From a bacterium (GTDB lineage Bacteria > Zhuqueibacterota > Zhuqueibacteria > Oceanimicrobiales > Oceanimicrobiaceae): a stretch of 49,202 nucleotides of DNA. The translations under genes were made by a program, and so were the position numbers. Shown in pieces: positions 15,352 through 38,112 of this stretch; within the stretch, counting starts at the first letter, position 1, and the number at the start of each line of letters is the position of its first letter. The stretch spans positions 1-49,202 of the forward strand of contig JBHHXT010000017.1 of assembly GCA_046757165.1 (NCBI GenBank). The letters run 5' to 3'. The notes under the pieces are model-generated. The model searched no databases. It saw only the letters and a list, made by a program, of their open reading frames with translations, and had not been told where the DNA came from.

Positions 15352-15368
15352 CTGGTATAGTTTTTGCA
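15352..15368 (+). promoter_or_regulatory. sigma-54 (-24/-12) promoter candidate
   Basis: CTGGTATAGTTTTTGCA: GG-N10-GC with TGGYA and TTGCA flanks. Confidence 0.6.
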
Positions 15369-15613
15369 AAAATGAAAGAATTCTTTTCTTGTGACTATAA
15401 CTAGATGGCGCTCGTGTCAAAACATGAAACATAGACAATATCGTGATACACAGACTGCCCCTACTTTAGTTCCTTTTGCGTTCCTGACGTTTACGCTTCT
15501 CCTCTTTGATCCAACACCAATAAATGTCAGCTTTCTTACATTAAATATCAGCAGATAGCATAACAGAGGGAGTTGGGTTCACAAAGATTGCGATCTTTGT
15601 TGCAACATTTTGG

Positions 15614-18600
15614 ATGGACGTTTTGATGATGAATCGGAGAGTCTATTTTCTTGCCGGATTGTTCGTGCTGTTCCTGAGCGCAGCATCCTTTGCCTCTACT
15701 GTGACTCCGGCAAACAGTACGGCCGGGGCGACCACGACGTATACCGTCGACTTTACGTTAACGGCTTTGGACAATCTGCCCGCTGACGGCTCCATAACCA
15801 TTACCTTTGGCAGTCTCGAGTATGATCTAACCGGGACCTTGACGGCAACGTCGCCCGATATCTCAGGCGGGTTCTTGGCGGCCACGCCTGGCGGCGGACA
15901 GTCCGTCACCTTCGTGCGGGACAGCACCGGCGCAGCTCTGCTCGGCGGCAACACGTATACGATTGTCTTTGGCAATGTGACCAATCCAACCACGGCGCAG
16001 TCCTATACGTTGACGGTAACGACCAGCGGCGGAAGCACGGACCCCAGCAGCTCCTACTCGATTACTGCAGACCAGTTGGACCATTTCACTGTTTCCGACC
16101 CCACGCCGTTCACACCAACCGCGGGCGTCAACTTTAGCGTGACGGTAGCGGCTTTCGACCAGTTCAACAACGCCACCGCCTTCAATGGCACGGTCAATTT
16201 GAGCGACAACACCACCACCTTGACGCCGACGAGTGTTGCGATGGCGGGCGTCTCCGTGGATGTGACAAATGCTCGCATCACCAAGGCCCAAAGTGGCGTT
16301 CAAATAACAGCCTCCGAAAGTGGGGGAGCCAGCGGCATATCCAGTGCCTTCACCGTGGATCCTGCGCCGTTGGACCATTTCACGGTCTCGGATCCAACCC
16401 CGGCCACTCCCACCGCGGGAGAAGACTTCACTTTCACGGTGGCGGCGTTTGACGAATTCAACAATGCCAGGACCTTCAGTGGCACGGTGAGCTTGACGGA
16501 TAACACCACGACACTGACACCGACCAGCGTGGCCATGGCCGGGACCTCTGTTTCGATCACCAATGGCCAAATTACGCAAGCGCAATCAGGGATTCAGATT
16601 ACGGCCTCAGAAGCCGGAGGGGCAACGGGAACCTCCAACTCCTTCACGGTGGTGGCTGCAGATATTGCGACCTTTGATTTGAGCGATCCCGGCACGCAGG
16701 AGGCCGGCGTTACCTTCAACGTGACCGTCTCGAACGCCCGCGATAGCTTTGGCAACCTGGCCTCCGGAACGATTGCGATTGATTTCAACGATAGCGATTC
16801 TCATCAGGTGCCAAACGGGGAGTCGCCTGTTTTGGCGGATATCGCGGTCGCCAACGGTTCTGGCACGGAAGCACAGCTTCTGTACTTGCGGGAATCCGGC
16901 GTCGTCTTGCTCGGCACCGTTGCCGCCACCTCTGCTACGGATAGCACACAGCCTTTCAGCGTCAACGCCGGCCTAATTCAAAATTTCTCCTTCCGCGATC
17001 CGGGTGCGCAGACCGCGGGCGTCGGATTCATTCTCACGGTGGAAAATGCCCGGGATGGCTTCAACAATCCTGCTGATGGCACGGTCGAAGTCAGCTTTTT
17101 CGACGCCGGCACCCATATCGCACCTGACGGTACGGCGCCAACCTTGCGAAACATCCTCGTTGGGAATGGATCCGGCAGCAACACGCAGGACTTGTTCCGG
17201 GCGGAAACCGGCCTCCTGCTGAGCGGTTCGGTGACCGCCACCGGGGCGTCGGATGATACACAGGCTTTTGATGTCACCGCCGCTACCCTCGCCGGTTTTA
17301 CGTTAGATACCCCGGGCACCCAAACTGCCGGCACAGAATTTACCCTATCCGTCTCCAACGCGGTTGACGCCTATGAAAATCCGGCGTCGGGGACCGTGCA
17401 GGTGAGCTTTAAAGACCAGCAACCCCATCTTGCGCCAAATCAAATTCCTCCGACGTTGCGGGATATCGCTGTCTCGGCAGGCGCCGGCAGCGCCATGCAA
17501 ACGTTGGTACTGGAGGAAAACAACGTGCAGCTCCGCGGCGACGCCGGCAATAGCGTCATCGACGACACCGGTAATTTCAATGTCACGGCGGGCAATTTGG
17601 CCGCGATTCAGATTCAAGTGGGGACGGCGGCCGGGGATACCACGGCTGTCGGTAACCAGAATCTGACGACGGGCAGCACATTGGCAATGCATGCTTCAGG
17701 GTTTGACATTTATGAGAACCATCGCGGCAGCGAAAGCGTGACCTGGGTGCTTGTTGGTACGAATATTGGCTCTTTGAATCCGGCAAGCGGTCCGAGCACC
17801 ACCTTGACGGCCACCACCCCGGGCACGGCCATTATTCAGGCAACCGAGACGAATTCCGGCCTGATCGATTTTACGGGCGCCATCGAGGTCAGCCTGGGTA
17901 ACGTGGTCAAGATCAGAATTCGCACCGCACCGAATAACGGCGGCAAGGAATTTGGTGACTCGACCCTGACCGCCGACGAAACCATGACTTTTTACGCCGC
18001 CGGCTACGACAACGAGGACAACTATATCAATGATTTCAGTGTTGACTGGCGCTCGCTCGGCGGACTGGAAAACATAAGTGGCAATAGCGGTAGGAGTTTC
18101 ACCTTCAGTCCAACCCTGATCGGGAGCGGACAGATTGTCGCAGACCATACCACTGCGACCGATGACACGACAGGCACGATTACGGTCACGCCTGGTTTGC
18201 CGGCCGGCACGGTGAATCTGACCCCCAGTGCGACGACCTTAGCGCCAACGGATACTTCACGAATAATATCATCACCGATAACCGATTCAGAAGGAAACCT
18301 GGTTGGGCCTGGAAGAGAGTTTGATGTGCAACTGGTCAATGGCCCCTTTGGCACCATCATAACCACGGATGCCAACCCGGGCAAAGCAGGGCATCAAATC
18401 AACACCGATGATAATAGCCAACTGGCTTTTGTTTTTCAAGCCGGAAATGAGGGCGGCACGCAGAATATCGTTGTGAGTAGTGTCGGCGGCGCGACCGGGA
18501 ACACCTCGATCACCATCGGCAGTTTGCGCATTCTCCGGGTTGAGAATGCGCCCGAGTTCGTGAGTCGGGGGCAGAGCGGGGTCACCAACCTTCAGATGAC

Positions 18601-21600
18601 AGTGGAAAATCTCAGTCCGTCATCGGCTACGAACCTGGCTCCTCAGTTGACGTTTAGCGGGGCGGGCCTTAGCTTTCAGCGCAAGGATTCTTTTACGGAC
18701 ATCCCTCCTGCTCCCGGGACACGCACGTTCACGTTTGATGTGGACGTGCTTCCTAATGCTGACTTAGGCTTGGTTACCATTGATGGCCTAATCAACGCGG
18801 AGATCAATAATACGCCTGTCTCTGCTCAAGGGGCTGTGACGCCGGACAGCGTGACCGTCCAGGATACGGCCCGGGTGAGTGTCGTCAGCGTGACAACCAC
18901 GCCGGACACGGTTGTGCAAGGCCGGCCGCCGGTAGATGTTACCGTCAGAGTCTCCAATCCCGCGCCCGCAGGGGTGTCTGCTGCCGCGGTACTCGACAAC
19001 ATCCAGTTGAAATTCACGCTCATAAAGGACGGCAGCGACAAAACCAACGAGTTTGTCGTGGTCGAAAAAGGAGGCATTCCCTCCACCATTGCTGCTGGCG
19101 CGACGGCGGATGTTGGTTTCACGGTCAGCGTGCGTGCCTCAGCAGATAGCGGGCAATACATTCTGGACGCCAACGCGTTTGGTCACGATATTAATTCTTC
19201 CGCCTTGACGATTCGAGACACGGATGGGGCATCGACCACCGATACCTGGTATGTAAAGGGCGCTGCCAGCCTGGAGATTTTGTCTCTGACTCCGATTCCG
19301 CAACCGGCCGTCCGCGCGGAACAGCCTACCGAATGGCGAGTGAGGATGCAGATTGAAAACAGCAGCCCGGACGACATCGACATCGATTTTAACAGTGTCA
19401 ACACCTACGTGAGATTTCGAATCGGAGCAAATGATGTGACCGGGGAGTACACCATCATCAATCCGGACTCTCTGAAGAACGCGGGAACGAATCGCCTGGC
19501 GAGTGGCGCCACAGACACGCTCGATTTCAGAATCGTCCAAACCGGATTCACGACGGGCACGGCGACCATACTGGGCAGTGTCGAAGGGATTGTCGTGGGC
19601 TCCGGCAGTCGCATTTCAGATGACACCAGCGATGACATCGGTCTGGGCTCTGTTCAGATCAACCCGGCCGACGCATCGGTTTTTGTGTTGACCACCAGTC
19701 CGCACACCTCTGTGCCGAATGCTTCTCCAGAAGTTGGGGTTGTGAACACAAACCAGGGTTTTAAGATAACGGTTGTCGTGATCAATGATCTGCCTGAGCC
19801 GGTGGACACGGTGGTTGTCAAGTTGAGCAGCAGCGTCAACAGCGGGGGCTCCACGATTTTGACGCCCCAGGATACGATTGCTTCCATTCCAGCCAATTCT
19901 AGCGGCTCTATCGATTTTGACATCATCGCTGCAGGTACTGCCAATCCTACTCAAGGGGAAACGTTTACGGCAGAGGTCTTGAACGCCACGGGCCAGCACA
20001 GCCGCCAGCCAGCGCCTATCGGTTCGCCGACAGACAACAACGTCCTTTTTCGCATCCAGGATCCCGCTGACTTGGTGGTGTCTTTGAGTATGGATACGGT
20101 TCAAACGGCGAACGATACGTTCGAGGTGTCGGCGACGGTCACGAACCTGGGGCAAGCAGATATCGACAATGCGGGACGTCTGGTGCTGACGGTGCCGGCC
20201 AGTTATCTTCTTGTCCCAGGCTCTGTTAACCCAGCCGCCTTTTCGTTGGACAACCCGGTGACGTGGGAGGTCATCGCTCCTGCCAGTGAAACCGTTAGCG
20301 ATACGTTCATCGTCAATATCAGCCAGGTCCCTAACGATGTCAACATCGCCGGCTTTGCGCAAGTCACGCGGGGCGTTGACTCGGTGCAAATCCGCACCTC
20401 GGACATTGGTCTTGCGATCGACGAGTTTCGAATCGTGTCGCCGGCCGGCGCGTTGGATGATACGCTCTCGAGTGAGCAAGAGTTTGCGGTGCAGGCCAAC
20501 ATCACCCGTACCGCCAGCATCGATTCTGTTCGTGCGACCTTGCAGCCTCCACCCGGCATTTCGCTGGCGCCGGGATTTACGAAGCTGACTAAGAGTTTGG
20601 GACCGGGCGTTACGAGCGCGAGTTGGAACCTGAAGGTCGCCGCAAACCAAACCGGGCAATCGACGCTAACGGTGCAGATGGTCGCCTTTGACCGCGGCGA
20701 AATCGCGGCCCAAACCTCGGCCAATATTGTGATTGAAACGGTCTTGAAGGGAAGGCTCCAGTTTGTTAGCTTCAGGTCAAACTTGCAGGGAAATCGTGCC
20801 TCGGTCAACCAGCAATTTCAACTTACCGCCGAGATCAGGAATTTCGGTGGCGCAGGCGTCACCCCCGGCCGCATTCGTCTAAACCAGGGGAATTCCGGCA
20901 TCATCAATCTGGATGCGGATGAAAGAACGTTTGATCCGGATGAGAATGTCGAGGTCGTTTGGAATGTACGGGCGCCGGCCACCCCAACCGCACGCGCCAC
21001 GATCACGGCGCGAATCGAGGAAATTCCAAAAGACGAGAACTCTGGACAGGAGGCCGCGCCCGCGACCCTCGAGCTGCCCCTTGAAGTCGAGACGGGTGAA
21101 TTTGGCGCCGCCACCATCAACAAGATATCGGTGCTATCCCCTCCGGGCGCTCAGGACGGCGTGATCTCAACCAACCAGCAGCTTACGGTCGAGGCAGAGG
21201 TGGGCTGGAATGATTTGGTGCAATTACAGGCTCAGATTAGCTGGGGGGATGCGGGCTATACCGTCCTGAACGGGACGCGAACCAAGAATATCACCCAGGG
21301 TCCCGTCACGACCGTACAGTGGGAATTGCGGGCCTCGCCAAACGCTGTTACGCAACACCATATCAAGGTCGAGGTGTTTGGAAATGATGCCAGCTCGGGT
21401 CAGCCGGTCAATGCTGTGCCCGATTCGATTCAGTCTACGGTCGTGGAGCGGGCAGACCTGACCCTGGTGGCTTCGATTTCGAGTCCTCCCTCTGCAATCG
21501 ACCGCATATTGACCGTGGGTCAGCAGTTTACCATCACCGCAGAGCTACAAAATACCGGCGCGGCCGGCCTGATTGGCGAAGACAATTTGAGGATCGAGCT

Positions 21601-22627
21601 GCCTCCAAGCTACACCATATCTGAACCCTCGATTAAGAGCGTGGCCCCTGACAATCAGGTGAGCTGGAGCGTCACAGCTCCGGACAATCCGACCAACCAG
21701 GTGGAAGACATCGTCATTTCGGTAGACCAGCAGAACTCAATTGACGAAAATACGGGCGACAACCCCCCTTTCGGGCCGTCGTCGGTCAAGATACCTGTTC
21801 AAACTCAGGCCGTCGGGCTCAATTTGACTCAACTCAATGACAGAAAACCGACCACGATTCCTCGCGGCGCTACGGACCAGCCTATTTTCGGCCTTCGGTT
21901 TGCGAACTCCAGCGATGATGATATCAATTTAGAGCGCATCAACCTGACGGTAGAAGATAACGACGGCAACGAAATCGCTCCGAATGCAGTTTTGTCGGGC
22001 CTGCGCGTGGTCGATTATGACAATTCCTCTGAGGTTTTTGCCACATTGGCCTCGATGCCAGCAAGTAATGCCATGCAGATTGACTTCAATCCCAATGTCA
22101 CGATTGCTGCCGGGCAAAACCGGTCGATTGAATTCCGCGTTGACCTCCTGGCTCAGTCAGATACGCCCAATTTCAGTCTGACGATCAGAGACCCCAACCG
22201 AAATGTCCTGGCAAGAAACACCGCCTCTGACAGCCTGGTGGCGATTCTTGATGAAGCGGGCTTTGAAATTCAAGGAGCGTTGAGTGCAGGCTCATCTGCA
22301 ATCATCGGGTCCGGATTTGCGGCGAGCTTTTTCAATTTCCCGAATCCATTTGGTCAAGGCGAGCAGACCATGTTCAATTACAGTCTGCCGCAAGACTCTC
22401 AGGTCACGCTAAGGATTTATACTTTGCTGGGTGAATTGGTGTGGACGACATCGTTCAGTGCCTCCGACGCTGAGGGCAAAGCTGGAAATCATGATGGTGT
22501 GAGCCTCAAAGCCATCACCTGGGACGGCAAGAACGGCAAGAGCCAGGAGGTTCTCAACGGCGTCTATATCGCTGTTCTGTCAACCGATTCCGATAAAGCG
22601 GTAACAAAAGTCGCAATTGCGAAATAA
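15614..22627 (+). CDS. Giant secreted multi-Ig-like repeat protein with C-terminal FlgD-Ig/T9SS type A-like sorting domain
   Basis: Signal peptide (..LSAASFA|S), T/S/V/G-rich beta repeats, C-terminal FPNPF...LRIYTLLGELV...WDGKN....NGVY.......KVAIAK. Confidence 0.85.
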   Translation: MDVLMMNRRVYFLAGLFVLFLSAASFASTVTPANSTAGATTTYTVDFTLTALDNLPADGSITITFGSLEYDLTGTLTATSPDISGGFLAATPGGGQSVTFVRDSTGAALLGGNTYTIVFGNVTNPTTAQSYTLTVTTSGGSTDPSSSYSITADQLDHFTVSDPTPFTPTAGVNFSVTVAAFDQFNNATAFNGTVNLSDNTTTLTPTSVAMAGVSVDVTNARITKAQSGVQITASESGGASGISSAFTVDPAPLDHFTVSDPTPATPTAGEDFTFTVAAFDEFNNARTFSGTVSLTDNTTTLTPTSVAMAGTSVSITNGQITQAQSGIQITASEAGGATGTSNSFTVVAADIATFDLSDPGTQEAGVTFNVTVSNARDSFGNLASGTIAIDFNDSDSHQVPNGESPVLADIAVANGSGTEAQLLYLRESGVVLLGTVAATSATDSTQPFSVNAGLIQNFSFRDPGAQTAGVGFILTVENARDGFNNPADGTVEVSFFDAGTHIAPDGTAPTLRNILVGNGSGSNTQDLFRAETGLLLSGSVTATGASDDTQAFDVTAATLAGFTLDTPGTQTAGTEFTLSVSNAVDAYENPASGTVQVSFKDQQPHLAPNQIPPTLRDIAVSAGAGSAMQTLVLEENNVQLRGDAGNSVIDDTGNFNVTAGNLAAIQIQVGTAAGDTTAVGNQNLTTGSTLAMHASGFDIYENHRGSESVTWVLVGTNIGSLNPASGPSTTLTATTPGTAIIQATETNSGLIDFTGAIEVSLGNVVKIRIRTAPNNGGKEFGDSTLTADETMTFYAAGYDNEDNYINDFSVDWRSLGGLENISGNSGRSFTFSPTLIGSGQIVADHTTATDDTTGTITVTPGLPAGTVNLTPSATTLAPTDTSRIISSPITDSEGNLVGPGREFDVQLVNGPFGTIITTDANPGKAGHQINTDDNSQLAFVFQAGNEGGTQNIVVSSVGGATGNTSITIGSLRILRVENAPEFVSRGQSGVTNLQMTVENLSPSSATNLAPQLTFSGAGLSFQRKDSFTDIPPAPGTRTFTFDVDVLPNADLGLVTIDGLINAEINNTPVSAQGAVTPDSVTVQDTARVSVVSVTTTPDTVVQGRPPVDVTVRVSNPAPAGVSAAAVLDNIQLKFTLIKDGSDKTNEFVVVEKGGIPSTIAAGATADVGFTVSVRASADSGQYILDANAFGHDINSSALTIRDTDGASTTDTWYVKGAASLEILSLTPIPQPAVRAEQPTEWRVRMQIENSSPDDIDIDFNSVNTYVRFRIGANDVTGEYTIINPDSLKNAGTNRLASGATDTLDFRIVQTGFTTGTATILGSVEGIVVGSGSRISDDTSDDIGLGSVQINPADASVFVLTTSPHTSVPNASPEVGVVNTNQGFKITVVVINDLPEPVDTVVVKLSSSVNSGGSTILTPQDTIASIPANSSGSIDFDIIAAGTANPTQGETFTAEVLNATGQHSRQPAPIGSPTDNNVLFRIQDPADLVVSLSMDTVQTANDTFEVSATVTNLGQADIDNAGRLVLTVPASYLLVPGSVNPAAFSLDNPVTWEVIAPASETVSDTFIVNISQVPNDVNIAGFAQVTRGVDSVQIRTSDIGLAIDEFRIVSPAGALDDTLSSEQEFAVQANITRTASIDSVRATLQPPPGISLAPGFTKLTKSLGPGVTSASWNLKVAANQTGQSTLTVQMVAFDRGEIAAQTSANIVIETVLKGRLQFVSFRSNLQGNRASVNQQFQLTAEIRNFGGAGVTPGRIRLNQGNSGIINLDADERTFDPDENVEVVWNVRAPATPTARATITARIEEIPKDENSGQEAAPATLELPLEVETGEFGAATINKISVLSPPGAQDGVISTNQQLTVEAEVGWNDLVQLQAQISWGDAGYTVLNGTRTKNITQGPVTTVQWELRASPNAVTQHHIKVEVFGNDASSGQPVNAVPDSIQSTVVERADLTLVASISSPPSAIDRILTVGQQFTITAELQNTGAAGLIGEDNLRIELPPSYTISEPSIKSVAPDNQVSWSVTAPDNPTNQVEDIVISVDQQNSIDENTGDNPPFGPSSVKIPVQTQAVGLNLTQLNDRKPTTIPRGATDQPIFGLRFANSSDDDINLERINLTVEDNDGNEIAPNAVLSGLRVVDYDNSSEVFATLASMPASNAMQIDFNPNVTIAAGQNRSIEFRVDLLAQSDTPNFSLTIRDPNRNVLARNTASDSLVAILDEAGFEIQGALSAGSSAIIGSGFAASFFNFPNPFGQGEQTMFNYSLPQDSQVTLRIYTLLGELVWTTSFSASDAEGKAGNHDGVSLKAITWDGKNGKSQEVLNGVYIAVLSTDSDKAVTKVAIAK
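16076..16663 (+). repeat. Two tandem 98-aa (294-nt) intragenic repeats
   Basis: LDHFTVSDPTP...TVAAFD.FNNA...DNTTTLTPTSVAMAG...AQSG.QITASE.GGA.G repeated at 16076 and 16370. Confidence 0.9.
16664..17590 (+). repeat. Three tandem ~104-aa intragenic repeats (second type)
   Basis: PG.Q.AG..F...V.NA.D...N.A.GT..V.F.D...H..P....P.L..I.V..G.G repeated three times. Confidence 0.8.
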
Positions 22628-22635
22628 ACTGCGAT

Positions 22636-24591
22636 ATGACTGTGTTTCGACTCACAAAAGTGTTGACTCTATCGTTTCTGATTTTTATAATATTAGCGTT
22701 GGTCAAGGGCGTGACTGCTCAGCCGGCTGATGGCGGCCGCTCGAGTCTCTTTTCCTCCGCAGGTGTCGGTGCGCGGGCTCTTTCAATGGGGGGCGCTTTT
22801 GTGGCACTTTCTGATGATCCCACTGCTGTCTACTGGAATCCGGCCGGACTCGACTTTATCCAGAAAAAGGGCGCCACGTTCTTTTACTCGAGCTTGAATT
22901 TTGGCACGAGCTACAATTTCATCGCTGGCGTCTGGCCGACGCTCGAGTTTGGAACCGTGGGCATTGGCTGGGCCAGGATTGTAACAGACGGTGTGCAAGC
23001 GCGTGATTCACAAGCGAACCCCATCGGCGCGCCAGGTGATTTTAGCACGGATCAAATCATTTTCTCCTATGCCAAGCAACTCAGGAAGCGCACAGATTCG
23101 CTGAGTGTTGGCGTTAGTTTCAAGATTGAGAAGCTCAACTTCTCGTTTAGCAATCTGTCGGACACAGGGGTGGGCTTCGATTTTGCTCTGCTTTACAAAC
23201 CCGGATTTAGCAGCGGTTTCTTGAGGAATATCTCTTTGGGTGTAAACATTCAAAATGCGCTGACTTCAAAGGTGCGCCTTAGAACCGCGTCCGAATCCTC
23301 CCCGGTCAACTTCAAGGTCGGACTGGCAAAGACGTTTACGATTGGTGAAAACCGTAGCCGCTTTCGGCTGCTGTTTGATCTGAACCAAACAGAGAACGGT
23401 GTCGGGACCTACCATATCGGGACGGAGTACGCATTTCAGGACCGCGCCAACTTGCGCATGGGCTTCAACAGTGGCCAGATAGCTCTCGGCGCCGGCGCCT
23501 CCTATCACAATATCAGAATAGATTACAACTTTGGCAAATTCTTTGATGGGGCGGACTTTGCTTCAAATCATCGCTTTTCGGTGACCATTGCTTTCGGAAA
23601 GGGCAAGACGAGACGCAGGCGGGAGTTGGAAGCTGCGCGCCGGCAAGAAATCCACCTGGCGATCGCGCAAGAACTCTGGATGAAGAAAAAGATTGAATTC
23701 AATACCCACATAGCGAGCGGCAAACGACAATTCAGAAATGTCGACTATCAGGAAGCGTATGTGCAGTTCAAGAGTGCCCGAAGTGTAGCGGACACGTTGG
23801 AGGTGATGTCCAGTGGCTACGACAGAGATCATACCGGAGAGGACCGCGTGCAAATCGCCACGGCTGCGCAAGATACGGCCAGGACGTGGATAGAACGAAC
23901 AGACCGCAAGTGGAAAGAGCAGCGCGATGAGGAGAAGAAGAGACTCTATCGCGAAGAACGCCAGCGAGTTGAAGAGGCCGCAATCAGGAAACTCAATGAC
24001 CTCATCGTCGAGCACAGGGAGAAGGGTGATGGATTCTTCAAGAATGGAGACTATGCCGAAGCAATCAATGAGTGGCAACTTGTTGTCAACGCCATAACAG
24101 AGAGCACGGTCCAGAACCTTCCAGAGAATTTTGCCAACATCAAGAGGCAGGTTAACAAGGACCTGGCGACGGCAAGAAAATACCTCGCAGCCGAGCGACA
24201 AGAACGAGAAAGAAGAGTTCAGCGGCTGAGTTTCGATGACCATTTCAATCGCGGCTTGCGGGATTATGCGAGCAAGGATTGGGAGCGTGCCGCTGCTGCC
24301 TTTAAAAAAGCGTTGGACATCAATCGAAATCATGCCGATGCAAGGAAATGGTATGACAAAGCTTATGCGCGCTCCCGAGCGACGGTGAAGCAGATGCCGC
24401 AGCAACTGCGGGCAAAATACGCCCGCTCAGTGGCATTGTACAGGCAAGGCAAATATGCAGAATCTTTGGACCTGCTAATGGAAATCCGGGATGATAAACG
24501 TTACAAAGAGCAGCGTTATAACAAGCGAATCCTGGATCGCATTGATCTGGTCGAAGAAAAAATAGCTCAGAAGAAAAGGCGAAACCAATAA
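22636..24591 (+). CDS. PorV/PorQ-family outer-membrane beta-barrel with C-terminal coiled-coil/TPR extension
   Basis: Signal peptide, GARALSMGGAFVALSDDPTAVYWNPAGL signature, barrel ends HRFSVTIAF, then about 330 aa charged helical TPR-like region. Confidence 0.8.
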   Translation: MTVFRLTKVLTLSFLIFIILALVKGVTAQPADGGRSSLFSSAGVGARALSMGGAFVALSDDPTAVYWNPAGLDFIQKKGATFFYSSLNFGTSYNFIAGVWPTLEFGTVGIGWARIVTDGVQARDSQANPIGAPGDFSTDQIIFSYAKQLRKRTDSLSVGVSFKIEKLNFSFSNLSDTGVGFDFALLYKPGFSSGFLRNISLGVNIQNALTSKVRLRTASESSPVNFKVGLAKTFTIGENRSRFRLLFDLNQTENGVGTYHIGTEYAFQDRANLRMGFNSGQIALGAGASYHNIRIDYNFGKFFDGADFASNHRFSVTIAFGKGKTRRRRELEAARRQEIHLAIAQELWMKKKIEFNTHIASGKRQFRNVDYQEAYVQFKSARSVADTLEVMSSGYDRDHTGEDRVQIATAAQDTARTWIERTDRKWKEQRDEEKKRLYREERQRVEEAAIRKLNDLIVEHREKGDGFFKNGDYAEAINEWQLVVNAITESTVQNLPENFANIKRQVNKDLATARKYLAAERQERERRVQRLSFDDHFNRGLRDYASKDWERAAAAFKKALDINRNHADARKWYDKAYARSRATVKQMPQQLRAKYARSVALYRQGKYAESLDLLMEIRDDKRYKEQRYNKRILDRIDLVEEKIAQKKRRNQ

Positions 24592-24604: not shown

Positions 24605-27600
24605 TTGTTCACAAACGTCGAAAAACAACAACTAAAAGTTCCTGCGCATATAGACTATCTGGGCGACCTTCGCGACTTCGTCACGCAGATAGGCAAGAAA
24701 CACAGGTTCTCAGACAAAGTCGTCAACGCCTTTAAGCTCGCGGTTGATGAGGCGGCAACCAACATCATTCGCCATGCCTACCGGGATACGGACGGCTTGA
24801 TAACCATTCGAGCCATTGTCAAGAAGAATAGTCTGACTTTGTCGATCATCGACCAGGGTAAGTATTTCGATCCGAATCGGGTAGAGAATCCAGACCTCAA
24901 CCGCTACATCGATATCGGCAAGAAAGGAGGCCTGGGGATCTTTATCATGCGCAAGCTCATGGACGAGATCGAGTACAGCAGAACCGAGGAAGGCAACGAG
25001 CTGCGCATTACAAAATATCGCGATCAAGCCGAAAAGAAAGGAATCTTCAAGTCCGCCGTTTCTTCCATTCCTTTTTCGATCAAAGTCAAGTACTTTTTCC
25101 GCGCCATTGCCATCATTGCAACGCTCATAACCGTTGGCTATCTTTATTTTTTTTTCAAGGTAGATGAGAAGGTATTGTCGAAGTTTTTGTATGACTGCGA
25201 GGAAATCAACGCGAGCATTGTCACCCGAGTCATCTCCACGGTCAGCTTGAATCCTGATGAGCCCCTGGATGATGAGTTTTTCACCACCCTGGAAGAACAG
25301 TACGCGGAGATTCGTAAGATAGCCATTGAAGACTCGACCTCATATATCATCTATAGTACCGATACAAACGAATATGTTCGGGGTTTGTTCAGACCGGCCA
25401 AGATCGAAGTGGTCCGGAATCGTTTTCTTGGCGCCGGCGCCAAACTGTACAGATATAAGCTGAACAACGAGACGGTTTACGAATTCGAGAGCCCAATAGT
25501 GATCCGGCCTGGTAGACAGATCTTTGGCACGGCTCATATCGTTTTCACAGCGGTTTCTGCAGAAAGCCAAATTGCTGTGAGTCGACGCAGCAATCTAAAT
25601 CTTGCGTTGCTCATCCTCGGCCTGAGCTGCGTGGGTGTCGCCCTCATCATCTACCTGGTCATGAATCCTTTCCGTAAGCTCTCGGATTGGGTCAGGAACC
25701 TTGACCACGGACAAATCGAAGATGAGATGGATATTGACGCCTCCACCGAGATTGGGGAAATTGCCAAGGCGTTCAGCGATATCACCCACAAATTTCGGGA
25801 TTCACAAAAGAGGGTCGCTCAACAGGATCGGTTGGAGCGCGAGATGCGCGTGGCCAAGGATATTCAGCAAACCCTGTTGCCGATGTCGGTGCCAGAACTG
25901 GAAGGCTACCAGATTTCCGCGCATTATGAGGCGGCGACAGAAGTGGGCGGTGACTACTATGACTTTGTTGAAGTCGACCAGGACACGTGGGGAATCGCTG
26001 TCGCCGATGTTTCCGGCAAGGGTGTCCCGGGTTCGATGGTCATGACCATGATTCGGACCGTGCTGCGCACCGAGGCTCGTGGCGTGAAGGACGCGGCGGA
26101 TGTGCTCACGCGCGTCAATGATTTTGTCAGTAATGATATTAAAAAGGGCATGTTTGTCACGGTCTTCTACCTGATTATTGATTCGAAGAAGCGGAGCCTC
26201 AATTTTGCCAGTGCCGGCCACAACCCGATGATTCTGCGACGTGGCAGTACCAACCAAACCTACTACCTCAACCCGAAGGGATTTCCGATCGGTGTGAAGC
26301 TTCCGGACAAGGACTATTTCAAGAATTATATTGAATCAGAGACCATTCGGCTTGCCAAGGACGATATCTTACTGCTCTATACAGATGGAATTACAGAGGC
26401 GATGAACTCGAGGCGTGCGCTGTTTGGGGAAGAGCGTCTGCAGAAGGTCATGAGTGACTCCGGCCACTTGTCTGCAGAGGATTTCGTTGAGAGTCTGAAG
26501 GAAACTATTTACTCGTTCACCGAGGGTCAGCCCCAGTCCGACGATATCACTTTGGTGGCGATCAAGGAAAAGTCGACGCGTGAGGAAGACGAGCTCCGAA
26601 GGGCAAAGGAGGTCCATAGTCTCGTCTGCAATGGCCGGAGCGTTCGGGACGCGTGCCAGGAGGTGAATCTTGCAGTGTCGACTTACTATAACAAATACAA
26701 GAAAGTCTTTGAAGCGCAAGGAACAGATGGTTTCGAAATTGACGAAGTGGCTTCTGTCGAGTCGAAGCACCTGAGTATTGAGCAGAAGACCAGGATTTTT
26801 GACGTCATTGCCCATCATCCGGAGTACGGCGCCGGCAGAATCAAGGAAGAGCTCAATACCAAAAGGTATGACTTTACGGTCATCAGCGAAAGGAAGGTCT
26901 ATGAGGAGCTTGTTCGCAATCGATTGAATACACGGGCTTTACGTGAAGCTTATATCAATCGTGCCAGGAAGGGCAAGCGACGACCCAAGCCACCAGGCAC
27001 ACCGTATCTGACACTCCACGGTGAGATCGTGGTGCAGCATTCGAATATTGAGGATTACACCGCCGAAGAAGAGACGAAGGCACCGGAGTCGGGAGCGGGT
27101 GCTGAGGCGGGTCCGGCCGGGCGAACCGATGATGAACGCAGCGAGTCCATTGAAGTCGACAGTGTGATAATCACAGAGTTTGAGTCCGAGTCCCTGATAC
27201 ACAACCCTCTGGACGAAACCCTGTCCAATCCGCTGGCAACGGATCAAGATAAGAAAGATTCATCCGAAGATAATAGAGATGGGATCTCTGGTGGCCCCTC
27301 CGGAGCCGAGCCTGAAGTCGTGGTACCTAAAGCCGGAATCGAGGTCGGTGAGCATGACCCCGAGGCCACTTCCGACGATGTACCCTTTGAGGCGTTAGAG
27401 GCCATCGAGGGAACTTCCCTATTAGAGGACTTTACATTTGAAGAGCTGTTTGACAGCGGCTCGCAGATGGCTGATGAGGATGATTTCGACGAGGGCTCGG
27501 ACGAGGGTCAAGGCTCGAGCGTTGAATCGCAAGCGACCACCGCCTTCGATGCAGACGTCGAAGCACAAGCCGAGACACATGTAGAAGATGAGTCGCAGTC

Positions 27601-28375
27601 TCCTCCTGAGGTTCAGGAACAGGCGGGTCAATCGCAGCCGCAGGCGAGCGCTTCAGAATGCTCAGAAGTTAGCGCAGCAGATTCAGACGTTGCCGCGTTC
27701 TCCGTTGAGGAGCTGGTAGATCGAGATCGGGAGTCAGATTCCGAAAAGCAAGGAGACTTTGTACAAGCGACGGCCGAAGAGGGGCCCGACCTGCGCCGTC
27801 CACACGTGGCAGATGAGGATGAGGACACCGTATCTTTCTCGGACTTGATTCAAGCGATCGACGATGAAATCGTTTATGTAAGCAAACCTGCTCGTCAGCA
27901 AGATAAAGTCGCAGTGGAGTCCCGTGAGTTAAGCCCGTCAGCCGGGAAGCCGAAGCCGTTAGATGGGGATGAAGAGCCCTATTTCCATAAAAGCGAGCCA
28001 GGCGCAAATGGGGACCAGGACAAAGAGACGATATTGATTAACGGAATTAAGTATTACAAGAACAACGATTACGCCAAAGCGATCGAAGAGTTTAAGAAGG
28101 TGATCGATGTTTATCCCGACTATAAGGAGGCTCACAGCATCTTAGGAAACGCCTATTTTAGAAATAGAATGTACAATGAAGCGGCCCTTGAATATCAAAG
28201 GGTGAAGGAAATCGATCCCAACGACATCACGGCTTATGAGAATATGGGCGTGATTTATGCGAATCTCGGCGACTATAAACAAGCTCTGGGAGAGTGGAAA
28301 AAGGTGATGGAACTCAATCCGGATCGGATGGACATCAAGGATAAGATTAAGAAAGCCCTGAGAATGATAAATTGA
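24605..28375 (+). CDS. Membrane fusion: RsbW-type anti-sigma kinase, 2 TM sensor, HAMP, SpoIIE/PP2C phosphatase, HTH, acidic linker, TPR
   Basis: EAATNIIRHAY, DQG, GGLGIFIM (HATPase); two TMs; EIGEIAKAF (HAMP); EVGGDYYD, ADVSGKG, YTDGITE, DDIT (PP2C); C-terminal TPRs. Confidence 0.85.
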   Translation: MFTNVEKQQLKVPAHIDYLGDLRDFVTQIGKKHRFSDKVVNAFKLAVDEAATNIIRHAYRDTDGLITIRAIVKKNSLTLSIIDQGKYFDPNRVENPDLNRYIDIGKKGGLGIFIMRKLMDEIEYSRTEEGNELRITKYRDQAEKKGIFKSAVSSIPFSIKVKYFFRAIAIIATLITVGYLYFFFKVDEKVLSKFLYDCEEINASIVTRVISTVSLNPDEPLDDEFFTTLEEQYAEIRKIAIEDSTSYIIYSTDTNEYVRGLFRPAKIEVVRNRFLGAGAKLYRYKLNNETVYEFESPIVIRPGRQIFGTAHIVFTAVSAESQIAVSRRSNLNLALLILGLSCVGVALIIYLVMNPFRKLSDWVRNLDHGQIEDEMDIDASTEIGEIAKAFSDITHKFRDSQKRVAQQDRLEREMRVAKDIQQTLLPMSVPELEGYQISAHYEAATEVGGDYYDFVEVDQDTWGIAVADVSGKGVPGSMVMTMIRTVLRTEARGVKDAADVLTRVNDFVSNDIKKGMFVTVFYLIIDSKKRSLNFASAGHNPMILRRGSTNQTYYLNPKGFPIGVKLPDKDYFKNYIESETIRLAKDDILLLYTDGITEAMNSRRALFGEERLQKVMSDSGHLSAEDFVESLKETIYSFTEGQPQSDDITLVAIKEKSTREEDELRRAKEVHSLVCNGRSVRDACQEVNLAVSTYYNKYKKVFEAQGTDGFEIDEVASVESKHLSIEQKTRIFDVIAHHPEYGAGRIKEELNTKRYDFTVISERKVYEELVRNRLNTRALREAYINRARKGKRRPKPPGTPYLTLHGEIVVQHSNIEDYTAEEETKAPESGAGAEAGPAGRTDDERSESIEVDSVIITEFESESLIHNPLDETLSNPLATDQDKKDSSEDNRDGISGGPSGAEPEVVVPKAGIEVGEHDPEATSDDVPFEALEAIEGTSLLEDFTFEELFDSGSQMADEDDFDEGSDEGQGSSVESQATTAFDADVEAQAETHVEDESQSPPEVQEQAGQSQPQASASECSEVSAADSDVAAFSVEELVDRDRESDSEKQGDFVQATAEEGPDLRRPHVADEDEDTVSFSDLIQAIDDEIVYVSKPARQQDKVAVESRELSPSAGKPKPLDGDEEPYFHKSEPGANGDQDKETILINGIKYYKNNDYAKAIEEFKKVIDVYPDYKEAHSILGNAYFRNRMYNEAALEYQRVKEIDPNDITAYENMGVIYANLGDYKQALGEWKKVMELNPDRMDIKDKIKKALRMIN

Positions 28376-28409: not shown

Positions 28410-28438
28410 TTGACTTTTTTGCGATTTTCTATTATATT
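28410..28438 (+). promoter_or_regulatory. sigma70-type promoter upstream of the STAS gene
   Basis: TTGACT-17 nt-TATATT; AGGAG RBS before ATG 28485. Confidence 0.65.
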
Positions 28439-28484: not shown

Positions 28485-29186
28485 ATGGAAGGCATACATG
28501 TGTCTGTGGAAAAAGTTGGTCCGAATCAGAATATTTCGGTCATCAAAGTGGGAGGCTACATTGACACCACGACCTCTGCGGAACTAGAGCATGCGCTATC
28601 GAACCTTCTGAAGGCTCATAGTTATAGAATCATTATCGACCTGGGAAACGTCGATTATATTAGCAGCGCTGGCTGGGGTATTTTCATCAGTGAAATAAAG
28701 GGGATTCGTGAGAAAGCGGGGGACCTGAAATTGGTCCGCATGATCCCCGATGTGTATGAGGTATTTGAACTGCTGGAATTTCATTATATTCTCAAGGCTT
28801 TTGACACCCTGGAGGAAGCGATTGCTGATTTCGACAGCGAGAGTGCAGGCTCGGGGGTCGCGTTACCTCCCTACGAATCTGAACAGACTGGCGACGAAAA
28901 GTCTGCTGCCACTTCTCAGGAGGTTAAGACTGACGTCGCGCAGGTGGAGACGCGTTATGAGCCCTCATCAGATGATGCGTATCTGGAGACGATCGAAGAA
29001 AAACTGCGCCAGATCATTATTGAGAAGCCGGACGCAGGGATGTTCCAGTTGATCAGGAGTCTGAATACACCTCGGTTCGGCAACCTGAAGTTGGGCTGGT
29101 TTGAAATGCGCAAGTATTTGAAGCAGTTGAACCTGGAGTCAAAAAAGAAACGGGTTGAGTATTTCAAGCAGAATACTTTTGGTTGA
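28485..29186 (+). CDS. STAS anti-sigma factor antagonist with C-terminal HTH-like domain
   Basis: VGGYIDTTT, IIIDLGNVDYISSAGWG (phosphoacceptor Ser motif), VYEVFELL; about 120-aa extension. Confidence 0.88.
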   Translation: MEGIHVSVEKVGPNQNISVIKVGGYIDTTTSAELEHALSNLLKAHSYRIIIDLGNVDYISSAGWGIFISEIKGIREKAGDLKLVRMIPDVYEVFELLEFHYILKAFDTLEEAIADFDSESAGSGVALPPYESEQTGDEKSAATSQEVKTDVAQVETRYEPSSDDAYLETIEEKLRQIIIEKPDAGMFQLIRSLNTPRFGNLKLGWFEMRKYLKQLNLESKKKRVEYFKQNTFG

Positions 29187-35397: not shown

Positions 35398-35484
35398 CAA
35401 TAACGAGTTTCAATTGGAATCTGCCCGAATTTGGCAACTGACGTGCTTCGTAGATCGTTGGAAGCAACCCCGAGACATTGGAAG

Positions 35485-38112
35485 ATGTCGCAAGGAAACT
35501 TTAGAATAATCGGCCGCATTCTTGAGTCGTTGCGGCGTATCCAGACCAAAGAGATCAGCTGGGGCCGGACTCTGATCTATTCAGCGATCTGGTTCCTTTC
35601 TTTTGCGGCGCTTGCCTATCCTGCGGGTGGACCGAACAGCACAAGCTTTGCTATCTTCATCGTTCACGTCATCTTTTGGTTTCGACTGGTTGACGAGCTG
35701 GTGCAGCGGTTGCGCCCCCCGAACGAGCTGCTGATCTTGCTTGTCTTTCCTGTGTATCTGCTGGAATCTGCACTTTTGCAGGCCGCCTACCGCTCTGGCA
35801 TGGGTGCGATGCCATCGTTCAGTCTGAATTCTGTTGCCCTTGTGGTTCTGCAAATCATCACTCTTGCCGGCCTGATTTTGCCGTTGAGTGTGTTTTTGGT
35901 GCAAAACTGTCAGGGCAAAAAGGGTGTCCTGATCGGGTTTGTCCTGGTGGCCTGGATCGGTGTCGGCATGGTCGAGAGCGAGAGTGCTTCTTTCGATCTC
36001 TTGCTGCAAATGGTGCTGTTTGTCTTGCTGCTGCGCCGAACGACCTGGCTTGAAGCGTTAACCAAGGCCGAGTGTTGGCTCTACCTCGTTTTGGGTTACT
36101 TTGCCTTCCGGTGGCTTTCCGGCTTGCAGCCGTTTTCAGGGATATCGGCGGCGGAGGTCTCGCGTGCAACTCTGTGGTTTTCCGGGCCAAAGTTCTTGTT
36201 TTTCTTGTTTAAGATGTACCTGCTCGCGGTTCTGGTGAAGATCCCTATCGTCCTGGTTTACAATTTCGCCAGTCTTTCCAGAAAACTGAAAATATCGAGT
36301 TTGTTTCAGTCCACGTTTCCGCAGATTATCCAGTTGGGCATGCTGCTCATCATCTTTTATTTTTTCGTCGTCGGGCTTCAGGCTGAAAAGCTGCGCAAAG
36401 CCGTTTTTGCCGCCACGAAGCGGATCAATTCCACCGAGGACTTCGCATCGATTCGAATTGGTTCCCGGGGATGGGATTCTCATTTCGTCGTGGCTGGATA
36501 TGTGCCGCTTCGTGTGCCCGAGCACCTGCCCGAGCTCGCCATTGTGGCCCTGGACAGGGATTCGCGTTCCAGGGGCGAAAGAGATTATTTCATCTTCCTT
36601 CAGCCCGCGGAGCAAGACAGCGTCTCTTTGATCAAGATAGATTCCACTCTCCTGACTCAAATCGAGAAAGACCTGTCTATTCTGGCAGGGTCTGAGCTGG
36701 CGGCCTATCCGTATTCGCCACACAACTGGGAGACGTATGTGTACAATTTCAGCCTGGGAGATCTCAGTTTCTGGGGCGAGCGAGGCAATCTACAGATCTT
36801 CCCTTTTGCTGTGCACGGCAGCAAGCGCCGGCAAGCTGTGTCGATTTCTCTGGGTGACACTTCGGATGCGGCTGATTGGCAGGTTGAATTGGATGAGGAA
36901 GAGGTGATGCCAAATCCTGTCGCGACCGGCCGGGTCATCGCCTCTGTTTTTGGCGCAAATGAAACCGGCCCGCAATTTTTTGCCTTTGAAATTCTGAGCG
37001 GCCTTGACCTTACGTTTTTTACCACCACGTTGCTTAGTTTCATTCTTTTCCTGACTCTGGTCTATTTTCTGGTCAACCTGCTGATCACCCGCAGGATGGT
37101 CAGGTTTGGCTCTGAAATCAACCGCAGCATCGTGCAGAAGTTTAGTCAGCTCCGGGACGGCATTCGAGAGATTTCGGGAGGAAACCTGGATTACAAAGTC
37201 AAAATCGAAGGCAAGGACGAGTTCGTGGAACTGGCGGAGCGCTTCAACCAGATGGGTGACAACCTCAAGGCGTCTATCGCCGAGACGCGCGAGAAGGAGC
37301 GGCTGCAGCACGAGTTGACCATCGCGCGCCAGGTGCAGCTCGATCTGCTGCCGCGCAAACTTCCGGAAGTGCCGGGCTTCGAAATCGCGGCCATTCTCAA
37401 AACCGCCAACGAGGTCGGGGGCGATTTTTACGATGTTCTCGAGTTGGACGACAAACACTACCTTTTTACCATCGGGGATGTCTCCGGTAAAGGCACCTCC
37501 GCAGCTTTTTATATGGCACAGTGCATCAGCCTGATCCGCTACTCGCCGCAGTTCACTGACAGGCCGGATAAGATCGCCTGTCGCCTGAACAAATACTTCT
37601 CCGACCCCATGGTGGACCGGCAAGTGTTCGTGACCGCAATCATCGGCGTTCTGAATGTCAAAGAAAGCAGGCTGCGGTTTGTGCGCGCCGGTCACCCGCT
37701 GCCTCTTTTCATCCCAGGCGATGCCTCCGGGGAGATTGGTGAAATCGAGACCAGGGGCCTGGGGATCGGTCTGGAGAAGAACGGTCGGCTATTCGAGATG
37801 ACACTCGAACAAGAAGACATTGCGCTCGAGCCCGGCGACATGCTCGTGTTTTATACCGACGGTGTCGAGGAGGCTGCGCGGGCCGGTTCGAACCCCGGCA
37901 CGGCCGTTCGTGAAATTGAGTTCTACACGCCGGAGAGACTGAAGAGCAAGTTGAGTCAACTCCGAGGCCAAACGCCGGCCGCTATCCTGGATGCACTCAC
38001 CGAGGACATCAAGCACTTCTATGGCGGGAGCGCACAGGTGGACGACTATACCCTTTTGATTATCCAGAAGGCAGCGCTTCATCGAAAGGACGCGTCACGC
38101 ACATCATTGTGA
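35485..38112 (+). CDS. Multi-TM HAMP / SpoIIE (PP2C) phosphatase
   Basis: Many N-terminal TMs, extracytoplasmic domain, HAMP (KDEFVELAERFNQM), EVGGDFYD, GDVSGKG, YTDGVEE, DDYT; start 35431 or 35485. Confidence 0.88.
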   Translation: MSQGNFRIIGRILESLRRIQTKEISWGRTLIYSAIWFLSFAALAYPAGGPNSTSFAIFIVHVIFWFRLVDELVQRLRPPNELLILLVFPVYLLESALLQAAYRSGMGAMPSFSLNSVALVVLQIITLAGLILPLSVFLVQNCQGKKGVLIGFVLVAWIGVGMVESESASFDLLLQMVLFVLLLRRTTWLEALTKAECWLYLVLGYFAFRWLSGLQPFSGISAAEVSRATLWFSGPKFLFFLFKMYLLAVLVKIPIVLVYNFASLSRKLKISSLFQSTFPQIIQLGMLLIIFYFFVVGLQAEKLRKAVFAATKRINSTEDFASIRIGSRGWDSHFVVAGYVPLRVPEHLPELAIVALDRDSRSRGERDYFIFLQPAEQDSVSLIKIDSTLLTQIEKDLSILAGSELAAYPYSPHNWETYVYNFSLGDLSFWGERGNLQIFPFAVHGSKRRQAVSISLGDTSDAADWQVELDEEEVMPNPVATGRVIASVFGANETGPQFFAFEILSGLDLTFFTTTLLSFILFLTLVYFLVNLLITRRMVRFGSEINRSIVQKFSQLRDGIREISGGNLDYKVKIEGKDEFVELAERFNQMGDNLKASIAETREKERLQHELTIARQVQLDLLPRKLPEVPGFEIAAILKTANEVGGDFYDVLELDDKHYLFTIGDVSGKGTSAAFYMAQCISLIRYSPQFTDRPDKIACRLNKYFSDPMVDRQVFVTAIIGVLNVKESRLRFVRAGHPLPLFIPGDASGEIGEIETRGLGIGLEKNGRLFEMTLEQEDIALEPGDMLVFYTDGVEEAARAGSNPGTAVREIEFYTPERLKSKLSQLRGQTPAAILDALTEDIKHFYGGSAQVDDYTLLIIQKAALHRKDASRTSL

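Follow-up and report, generated by a model that had tools for sequence, protein, structure and literature searches.

Organization of the STAS-HTH gene and its neighbor

The window analyzed here was the whole 49,202-bp stretch of contig JBHHXT010000017.1 (assembly GCA_046757165.1) from a bacterium of the phylum Zhuqueibacterota. It carried a gene for a large membrane serine kinase/phosphatase (hereafter the kinase) and, after a gap of 109 bp, a gene for a STAS protein with a helix-turn-helix (HTH) tail (hereafter STAS-HTH). The two proteins shared a homologous module, HTH2, with sequence relationships to the DNA-binding head of IS481/IS3-type transposases. The two genes had the following features (aa, amino acids; TM, transmembrane segment; pLDDT, predicted local distance difference test):

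24605..28375, + strand, kinase gene (1256 aa: HATPase, 2 TM, HAMP, SpoIIE, HTH1, HTH2, hairpin, acidic region, TPR)
24641..25015, + strand, RsbW/SpoIIAB-type serine kinase domain (PF13581, E 3.1e-29; catalytic-type motifs present)
25979..26566, + strand, SpoIIE/PP2C phosphatase domain (PF07228, E 4.9e-50; metal-binding Asp motifs present)
26585..26728, + strand, HTH1 (first HTH of transposases), aa ~661-708, lacking in STAS proteins and in the paralogous kinase of contig C6
26774..26962, + strand, HTH2 of the kinase, from aa 724, homolog of the STAS tail
26987..27034, + strand, PPGTP beta-hairpin after HTH2 (invariant columns; strands in the AlphaFold2 model)
27038..28009, + strand, long acidic region, net charge -71
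28040..28336, + strand, C-terminal TPR domain (Pfam)
28410..28438, + strand, sigma70-type promoter of the STAS-HTH gene, between the two genes (22/24 loci; 53/57 loci in a wider set)
28485..29186, + strand, STAS-HTH gene (233 aa: STAS domain joined to an HTH2 tail by a flexible, acidic linker; TIGR00377 61.7 bits, cut-off 53.45)
28524..28820, + strand, STAS domain, aa 14-112 (Pfam PF01740, E 3.9e-17; Foldseek SpoIIAA/RsbV, E 4e-8 to 9e-8)
28665..28667, + strand, Ser61, predicted phospho-acceptor, invariant in 46 alignment rows
28845..28982, + strand, unstructured acidic linker, aa 121-166 (pLDDT <50; net charge -8)
28989..29171, + strand, HTH2 of STAS-HTH, aa 169-229, four helices, basic (AlphaFold2 model, profile alignment, charge count)

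Pfam recognized HATPase_c_2, HAMP, SpoIIE, and TPR in the kinase, and hydropathy indicated its two TM segments; with the topology so predicted, the kinase domain, the phosphatase domain, and the HTH module would all be cytoplasmic. STAS-HTH was a member of the STAS superfamily by a domain above the curated cut-off, a fold match, and a conserved Ser predicted to be the phospho-acceptor; Foldseek with its complete model returned STAS-type rows only. In an alignment with solved anti-anti-sigma factors, Ser61 fell on their conserved Ser motif and presumably corresponds to their phospho-site. Unlike the single-domain RsbV/SpoIIAA antagonists (~110 aa), STAS-HTH was 233 aa long with a conserved tail, and it scored 45 bits against TIGR02886 (cut-off 114.75). 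Across orthologs, the HTH2 tail was 77% identical and the linker 20%. No cognate alternative sigma factor was found in the domain scan of the 11 window proteins, a genome-wide search for one not having been made. With intact-looking kinase/PP2C motifs and an invariant Ser61, reversible phosphorylation of STAS-HTH by its neighbor would be the expected core of the system, by analogy with SpoIIAB, RsbW, and SypE.

Homology between the STAS tail and HTH2 of the kinase

Single-protein searches were poor at detecting the module: Pfam missed both HTHs, and pairwise BLASTP of the STAS tail against the kinase reported no match. The initial annotation had aligned by eye the STAS tail (from aa 169, nt 28989) with a kinase segment (from aa 724, nt 26774); this was indeed the best local alignment, marginal when taken alone (score 47 for the tail against the whole kinase, reached by 23/2000 shuffled tails), and for the two whole proteins 142/1000 shuffles reached the observed score. 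Although pairwise similarity was weak, homology of the two segments was clear because the family profiles aligned: in hhalign, the full STAS alignment (46 rows) matched that of the kinase region (30 rows) along 71 columns with E 9.3e-5, and the two modules realigned separately gave a probability of 96.6, E 6.6e-10, and a score of 50.9 over 66 columns, while column-shuffled module profiles reached at most 18.7 and 0/100 shuffles scored as high as 50.9. Used alone as the query of a genome search, the kinase region picked up 15 weak rows (E 7e-6 to 8e-4), and the coordinates identified 14 of them as STAS tails.

The predicted folds agreed as well. The AlphaFold2 models placed four equally spaced helices in the STAS tail (170-180, 186-193, 205-214, and 220-231) and in the kinase fragment (73-85, 91-98, 110-119, and 125-137 in fragment numbering). 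The Atlas structure search with the STAS tail retrieved HATPase-HAMP-SpoIIE clusters of Calditrichota and Zixibacteria (TM-scores 0.75 and 0.72), together with transposase N-termini (0.63-0.70). Profile alignment and structure models thus showed homology and a shared predicted fold of the STAS tail and HTH2 of the kinase, as the initial annotation had supposed.

The marginal pairwise score would also fit a vestigial transposon remnant or a chance resemblance. This explanation was largely refuted, and is very improbable, given the profile match (E 6.6e-10), a tail conserved at 77% beside a linker at 20%, and a presence in 120/121 phylum genomes. A mobile element, for which a patchy and multicopy distribution was considered, was also rejected: the module was in-frame, and gene order was fixed in 68/80 loci (terminal repeats not searched).

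Relationship to IS481/IS3-type transposases

Kinase aa 666-782 matched positions 2-115 of the 284 positions of the IS481 model NF033577 in 30/30 orthologs (best E 5.4e-9), and the IS3 model NF033516 matched 28/30 kinase regions; HTH_28, HTH_32, and HTH_21 were the related Pfam families of the transposase DNA-binding region. The NF033577 match ended at position 115, before the DDE core. The kinase thus contained HTH1 plus HTH2 of the transposase head, and STAS-HTH contained HTH2 only. The kinase-type relative P0151 was 33% identical to the complete transposase P0201 over 105 aa (E 2e-16). The Pfam scan of the kinase and STAS proteins found no rve/DDE catalytic domain. The sequence comparison with IS481/IS3 transposases thus revealed (i) likeness in the HTH1-linker-HTH2 sequence and predicted fold of the kinase and in HTH2 alone of STAS-HTH and (ii) differences in that the kinase and STAS modules had no DDE core, were fixed in conserved genes, and displayed a 3-residue insert and a remodelled recognition helix. 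By these sequence criteria, the shared segment was shown to be a conserved non-catalytic HTH module related to the transposase DNA-binding head. The initial annotation had missed the transposase origin and HTH1 of the kinase, as well as a second kinase and a second STAS paralog (see below).

TnsB, MuA, and Pax paired domains were on top of the fold neighbors of the kinase region, all weak (E 0.06-0.5), with no Foldseek match at E<=0.001. The Tc3 bipartite domain aligned over 102 residues with Z 5.7 and a root-mean-square deviation of 10.8, tied with unrelated HTHs, and the best Z in VIA was 5.8, a value common for small HTHs. With the kinase region, the PDB sequence search yielded nothing under E 0.05, and tblastn against plasmids no match. 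The Atlas feature search found transposase-type HTH clusters at 0.87-0.89 with the kinase region, to be taken as leads only, and none with the STAS tail.

Distribution and phylogeny of HTH2

Full-length STAS-HTH was present in 61/61 relatives and the kinase region in 60/61, the sole row of the remaining genome (G001) being a STAS tail. A second STAS-HTH on contig C7 (40% identical), or its relative, was detected at E<=1e-40 in 120/121 sampled phylum genomes. The names of homologs indicated KSB1 and Calditrichota. As to co-occurrence, which the initial annotation had put forward as a check, STAS-HTH was the next gene in 68 of the 80 kinase loci, while 5 loci ended at a contig edge, 3 had a split or cut gene, and 4 harbored a stand-alone kinase. 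The profile search of 1.84 billion representatives gave 519 matches at E<=0.001, and the best 150 of these comprised 58 STAS-HTH2 proteins, 2 STAS proteins with two HTH2 copies, 46 kinase-type proteins, 41 proteins with HTH2 only (mostly short, one with a DnaJ domain), and 3 others.

In the window's genome, HTH2 occurred in four open reading frames (ORFs), namely 2/16 STAS and 2/17 SpoIIE-containing ORFs, the latter being the two fused kinase/phosphatases, and HTH1 occurred in a single ORF. The paralogous kinase on C6 and those of nine relatives had lost HTH1 and retained HTH2.

Several paralogs and relatives were observed beside these families. The C6 paralog (L052, C6:190-6000; 1937 codons) was stand-alone, lacked HTH1 cleanly, retained HTH2, and carried a very long acidic region plus two TPR blocks. 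L058, L059, and L060 (in G004, G046, and G049) were second full kinase copies, with no STAS-HTH directly downstream where the locus was readable. Window positions 35431-38112 encoded a separate membrane HAMP-SpoIIE phosphatase without kinase domain or HTH. Two STAS paralogs without tail (C102:2736-3209 and C32:34343-34762), ~50% identical to the window's STAS domain, are natural controls for the role of the tail. In the STAS proteins P0053 and P0054, a charged and probably coiled-coil stretch lay between two copies of HTH2, of which the last was the most transposase-like. P0122, P0154, P0178, P0187, P0194, and P0200 formed a STAS-HTH2 subfamily in which a long low-complexity region at the N terminus preceded the STAS domain. 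P0098, encoded on a contig of 631 bases, combined a DnaJ domain with an HTH2 tail and may be an assembly error.

An insert of 3 residues was common to the kinase and STAS modules, as were invariant columns (P, L, aromatic, L, L, and R). A tree built from 72 columns separated the kinase rows (12) and the STAS rows (18) from 17 transposases with support of 94/96; when the kinases were held with the four closest transposases, this alternative was not rejected by the approximately unbiased (AU) test (p=0.07). L148, which had gaps in the module, was excluded from both trees, and L102, L121, P0052, and P0142 were excluded from the second as well. One transposase group had the same helix 4, and another the same recognition helix, which bears on the donor subgroup. 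The duplication within the system suggested by the initial annotation was thus favored by the shared insert and the tree, and not proven given the AU result; one transposase capture followed by copying from kinase to STAS is the favored, not proven, history.

P0052 and P0142, two unrelated proteins selected with the same profile, fell within the STAS rows of the first tree; the clade may therefore extend beyond the kinase/STAS system. P0052 was a hypothetical protein of Chlamydiales with five HTH2-like repeats. P0142 (1937 aa) contained two HTH1-HTH2 repeats of the same type (aa 1-270) fused to a membrane GT2 glycosyltransferase, possibly an independent domestication. A Thermodesulfobacteriota cluster from the Atlas joined T2SSC to a transposase-type HTH_21/HTH_32.

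Surface operons, sigma54-type promoters, and the 17-bp box

Upstream of the kinase gene, the window harbored the following features (T9SS, type IX secretion system):

15353..15367, + strand, sigma54-type -24/-12 promoter preceding the operon of giant gene, PorV, and kinase (14/17 loci)
15415..15431, no strand assigned, 17-bp TGT-N11-ACA box (consensus same as the tandem box of the second STAS-HTH gene)
15614..22627, + strand, gene for a giant protein, 2337 aa, with a T9SS type A sorting tail (TIGR04183 26.6 bits, cut-off 23)
22636..24591, + strand, gene for a PorV-family barrel with TPR (NF033709 123.6 bits, cut-off 90)

The order giant T9SS-tailed gene, PorV barrel, and kinase was seen again in relatives. 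A looser TGT-N11-ACA match lay near the promoter of this operon in 9/17 loci, at varying positions; 4/20 fetched loci had been left out of the promoter counts where the contig ended first. The second STAS-HTH gene preceded a polysaccharide export gene and a biosynthesis cluster: at L051 (C7:32230-32380), the second STAS-HTH gene and a wza/wzc-type polysaccharide operon followed a sigma54-type promoter that had a tandem 17-bp box ~100 bp upstream, an arrangement conserved across the class. The counts for these elements describe conservation and are not independent tests, because the patterns were derived from the same loci: upstream of the second STAS-HTH gene (31 unique loci), a sigma54-type site was found in 28/31, the tandem box in 22/31, and at least one box in 28/31; the strict tandem pattern occurred once in 18/61 genomes and never in the reversed control, with 15/18 matches just upstream of the second STAS-HTH gene by coordinates; and in the window's genome the box accompanied 12/315 sigma54-type sites versus 0/203 in reversed sequence. 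At the promoter of the window's STAS-HTH gene itself, neither the 17-bp box nor a conserved operator was seen, only -35/-10 and T-tracts (53 loci).

Further sigma54-type promoters with the same box were located on contigs C12, C32, C35, C142, C185, and C228 and make up a candidate regulon; the ORFs behind them would tentatively be named as encoding a Ser/Thr kinase, a PrkA-like protein, and a sugar-nucleotidyltransferase.

The 17-bp box resembled the PEP-CTERM box/PrsR regulon, in which a 17-nt motif, sometimes repeated, lies upstream of a -24/-12 site and is linked to exopolysaccharide genes; the two shared this arrangement and differed in that the published motif ends TTTACA and is proteobacterial (PMC1569441). 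The window's genome encoded 47 sigma54 activators, one above the PrsR cut-off, and a PrsK-like match was under cut-off. PrsR as the universal binder of the box was rejected, being above cut-off in 9/41 relatives only (31 candidates scored per genome), whereas the box was found in 28/31 loci of the second STAS-HTH gene. A PrsK/PrsR-like two-component pair (L231, C80:12776-16680) lay directly ahead of another wza/wzc-type operon.

Comparison with known systems

The pair would work like SypE/SypA and CapK/CapS, yet it fails defining features of both, and of transposases. CapS, a repressor of STAS-winged HTH architecture, leaves DNA upon Ser phosphorylation (Chambers et al., EMBO J 2026, PMC13373217). 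In CapK/CapS as in the present pair, the gene for a GHKL serine kinase precedes a STAS gene whose product has a conserved Ser and, at its C terminus, a domain of DNA-binding type; CapK also carries an HTH, whose role is given as not known, and no sigma factor is needed. They differed in that (i) the HTH of CapS is winged, and CapK has the order HTH-STAS-GHKL, is switched on by single-stranded DNA, and belongs to immune operons, while (ii) the present kinase was a HAMP sensor with two TM segments and a PP2C fused to it, both partners carried homologous HTHs of transposase type, and surface genes were linked. As to a possible counterpart of the CapS operator, the promoter region of the second STAS-HTH gene had the tandem box, and none was seen at that of the window's STAS-HTH gene (53 loci).

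Like the present system, SypE/SypA of Vibrio fischeri (PMC4517449 and PMC10120452) combines an N-terminal serine kinase and a C-terminal phosphatase in one chain with a STAS protein as downstream output, and its STAS gene heads a sigma54-controlled polysaccharide locus. SypE relies on a REC domain for switching, and SypA consists of a single domain of 105 aa, whereas the present kinase had two TM segments with HAMP in place of REC, and HTH2 was found on both partners.

The HAMP-PP2C part of the kinase matched the SiaA model at 63 bits, far under the 700-bit cut-off. SiaA/SiaB/SiaC of Pseudomonas aeruginosa reportedly controls biofilm through a phosphatase, a kinase, and a small substrate; its kinase is said to be separate, its output to run via a diguanylate cyclase, and no HTH to be involved.

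Function of the shared module

HTH2 was likely copied from the kinase/phosphatase onto its STAS partner, where it would serve as a nucleic-acid-binding output switched by phosphorylation of Ser61; we hold this reading tentatively, at a probability of about 0.45. A periplasmic signal would flip the enzyme between kinase and phosphatase, the enzyme would act on Ser61 of both STAS-HTH paralogs, and unphosphorylated STAS-HTH would oligomerize and bind DNA as CapS does, its targets being cell-surface genes (the giant T9SS protein and polysaccharide export). The initial annotation had envisaged a DNA-binding output that replaces a sigma factor. That notion was weakened by the sigma54-type promoters with enhancer-like boxes at both linked surface operons; because these promoters already exist, the HTH would modulate transcription, adding a second layer on sigma54 control. 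Net charge averaged +8.5 in STAS tails (n=58), against +6.8 in transposases (n=15) and +1.6 in kinase copies (n=46), and STAS tails carried K/R on helices 2 and 3; the contrast between basic STAS tails and near-neutral kinase copies, together with the CapS precedent, favors nucleic-acid binding by the STAS tail.

The following points weigh against a DNA output: (i) transposase models matched STAS tails weakly (8 and 9 of 41 mixed rows) and the window's tail not at all, and hhalign of STAS tails with transposases (E 0.002-0.01) was far below the match to the kinase copy; (ii) the STAS-HTH gene's own promoter showed no conserved operator beyond -35/-10 in 53 loci, unlike CapS autoregulation; (iii) the recognition helix of STAS tails started with an aromatic residue (F/W 65% at position 206), where transposases had small polar ones; (iv) the window's own pair displayed little charge contrast (+6 for the tail, +5 for HTH2 of the kinase); (v) membrane-bound kinases retained HTH2 after loss of HTH1, which a DNA output on STAS fails to explain; (vi) a sigma54 activator simply explains the 17-bp box, with 47 activators in the genome and one above the PrsR cut-off; and (vii) a protein target is proposed for SypA, which comes closest in gene context (PMC10120452).

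Point (v) would be accommodated if HTH2 were a docking tag, an idea related to the specificity tag of the initial annotation and one that we consider somewhat unlikely: the basic STAS tail would bind its cognate enzyme (HTH2, acidic region, or TPR), tether the substrate, and insulate the circuit from other STAS and PP2C proteins. Docking on the enzyme explains why HTH2 was confined to the four cognate proteins (2/16 STAS and 2/17 SpoIIE-containing ORFs, the latter both fused enzymes), and it agrees with retention of HTH2 by the paralogous kinase without HTH1 (10 rows), with the acidic recognition helix of kinases (E/D767 85%, E768 98%), whose STAS counterpart is basic or aromatic, and with the -71 charge of the acidic region. 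The transposase HTH is a DNA-binding fold, however, the two HTH2 modules of the window were both net positive, 4/80 loci had a full kinase without adjoining STAS, and STAS-kinase specificity normally resides in the STAS surface (compare PMC10120452).

Gene context raises another alternative, a post-transcriptional output as proposed for SypA, in which the tail would bind a protein, RNA, or a membrane face of the polysaccharide/T9SS machinery and a sigma54 activator would do the transcription. As in syp, the STAS gene headed a sigma54-type polysaccharide operon with the kinase/phosphatase separate; the surface of the STAS tail was aromatic plus basic, and similar HTHs were fused to the GT2 membrane protein P0142 and occurred in the T2SSC cluster. 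SypA, a single domain of 105 aa, need not share its mechanism with a tailed protein, and we regard this alternative as unlikely.

The DNA output can be extended to a counterpart of Pax/CENP-B domestication, a full scenario that is quite improbable: a transposase head would have been captured by the kinase/phosphatase in a KSB1/Calditrichota/Zixibacteria ancestor and copied to STAS; STAS-HTH itself would recognize the tandem TGT-N11-ACA box and, controlled by serine phosphorylation, act as the gate of a sigma54 surface regulon; and HTH2 of the enzyme, with its acidic region, would sequester STAS-HTH at the membrane.

Significance

The literature search found no description of this kinase/STAS-HTH pair, subscription journals and supplements being outside its scope. 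The words 'STAS', 'sigma', and 'transposase' were absent from the main text of the phylum paper (PMC11683472), as was 'helix-turn-helix' from the STAS review PMC8256260; a STAS domain joined to a DNA-binding domain is already published for CapS (PMC13373217).

The present pair offers a phylum-wide example of bacterial signaling partners that both carry a fixed transposase DNA-binding module, and a SypA-type STAS output protein here gains a visible effector domain, the SypA target in Vibrio being not yet known. The conserved sigma54-type promoters with the 17-bp box provide a concrete DNA probe and a candidate regulon, and the DNA-output and docking models are separable with purified proteins, though the host is uncultured. 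In this uncultured phylum of bacteria, a phosphorylation switch of this kind would govern genes for the cell surface.
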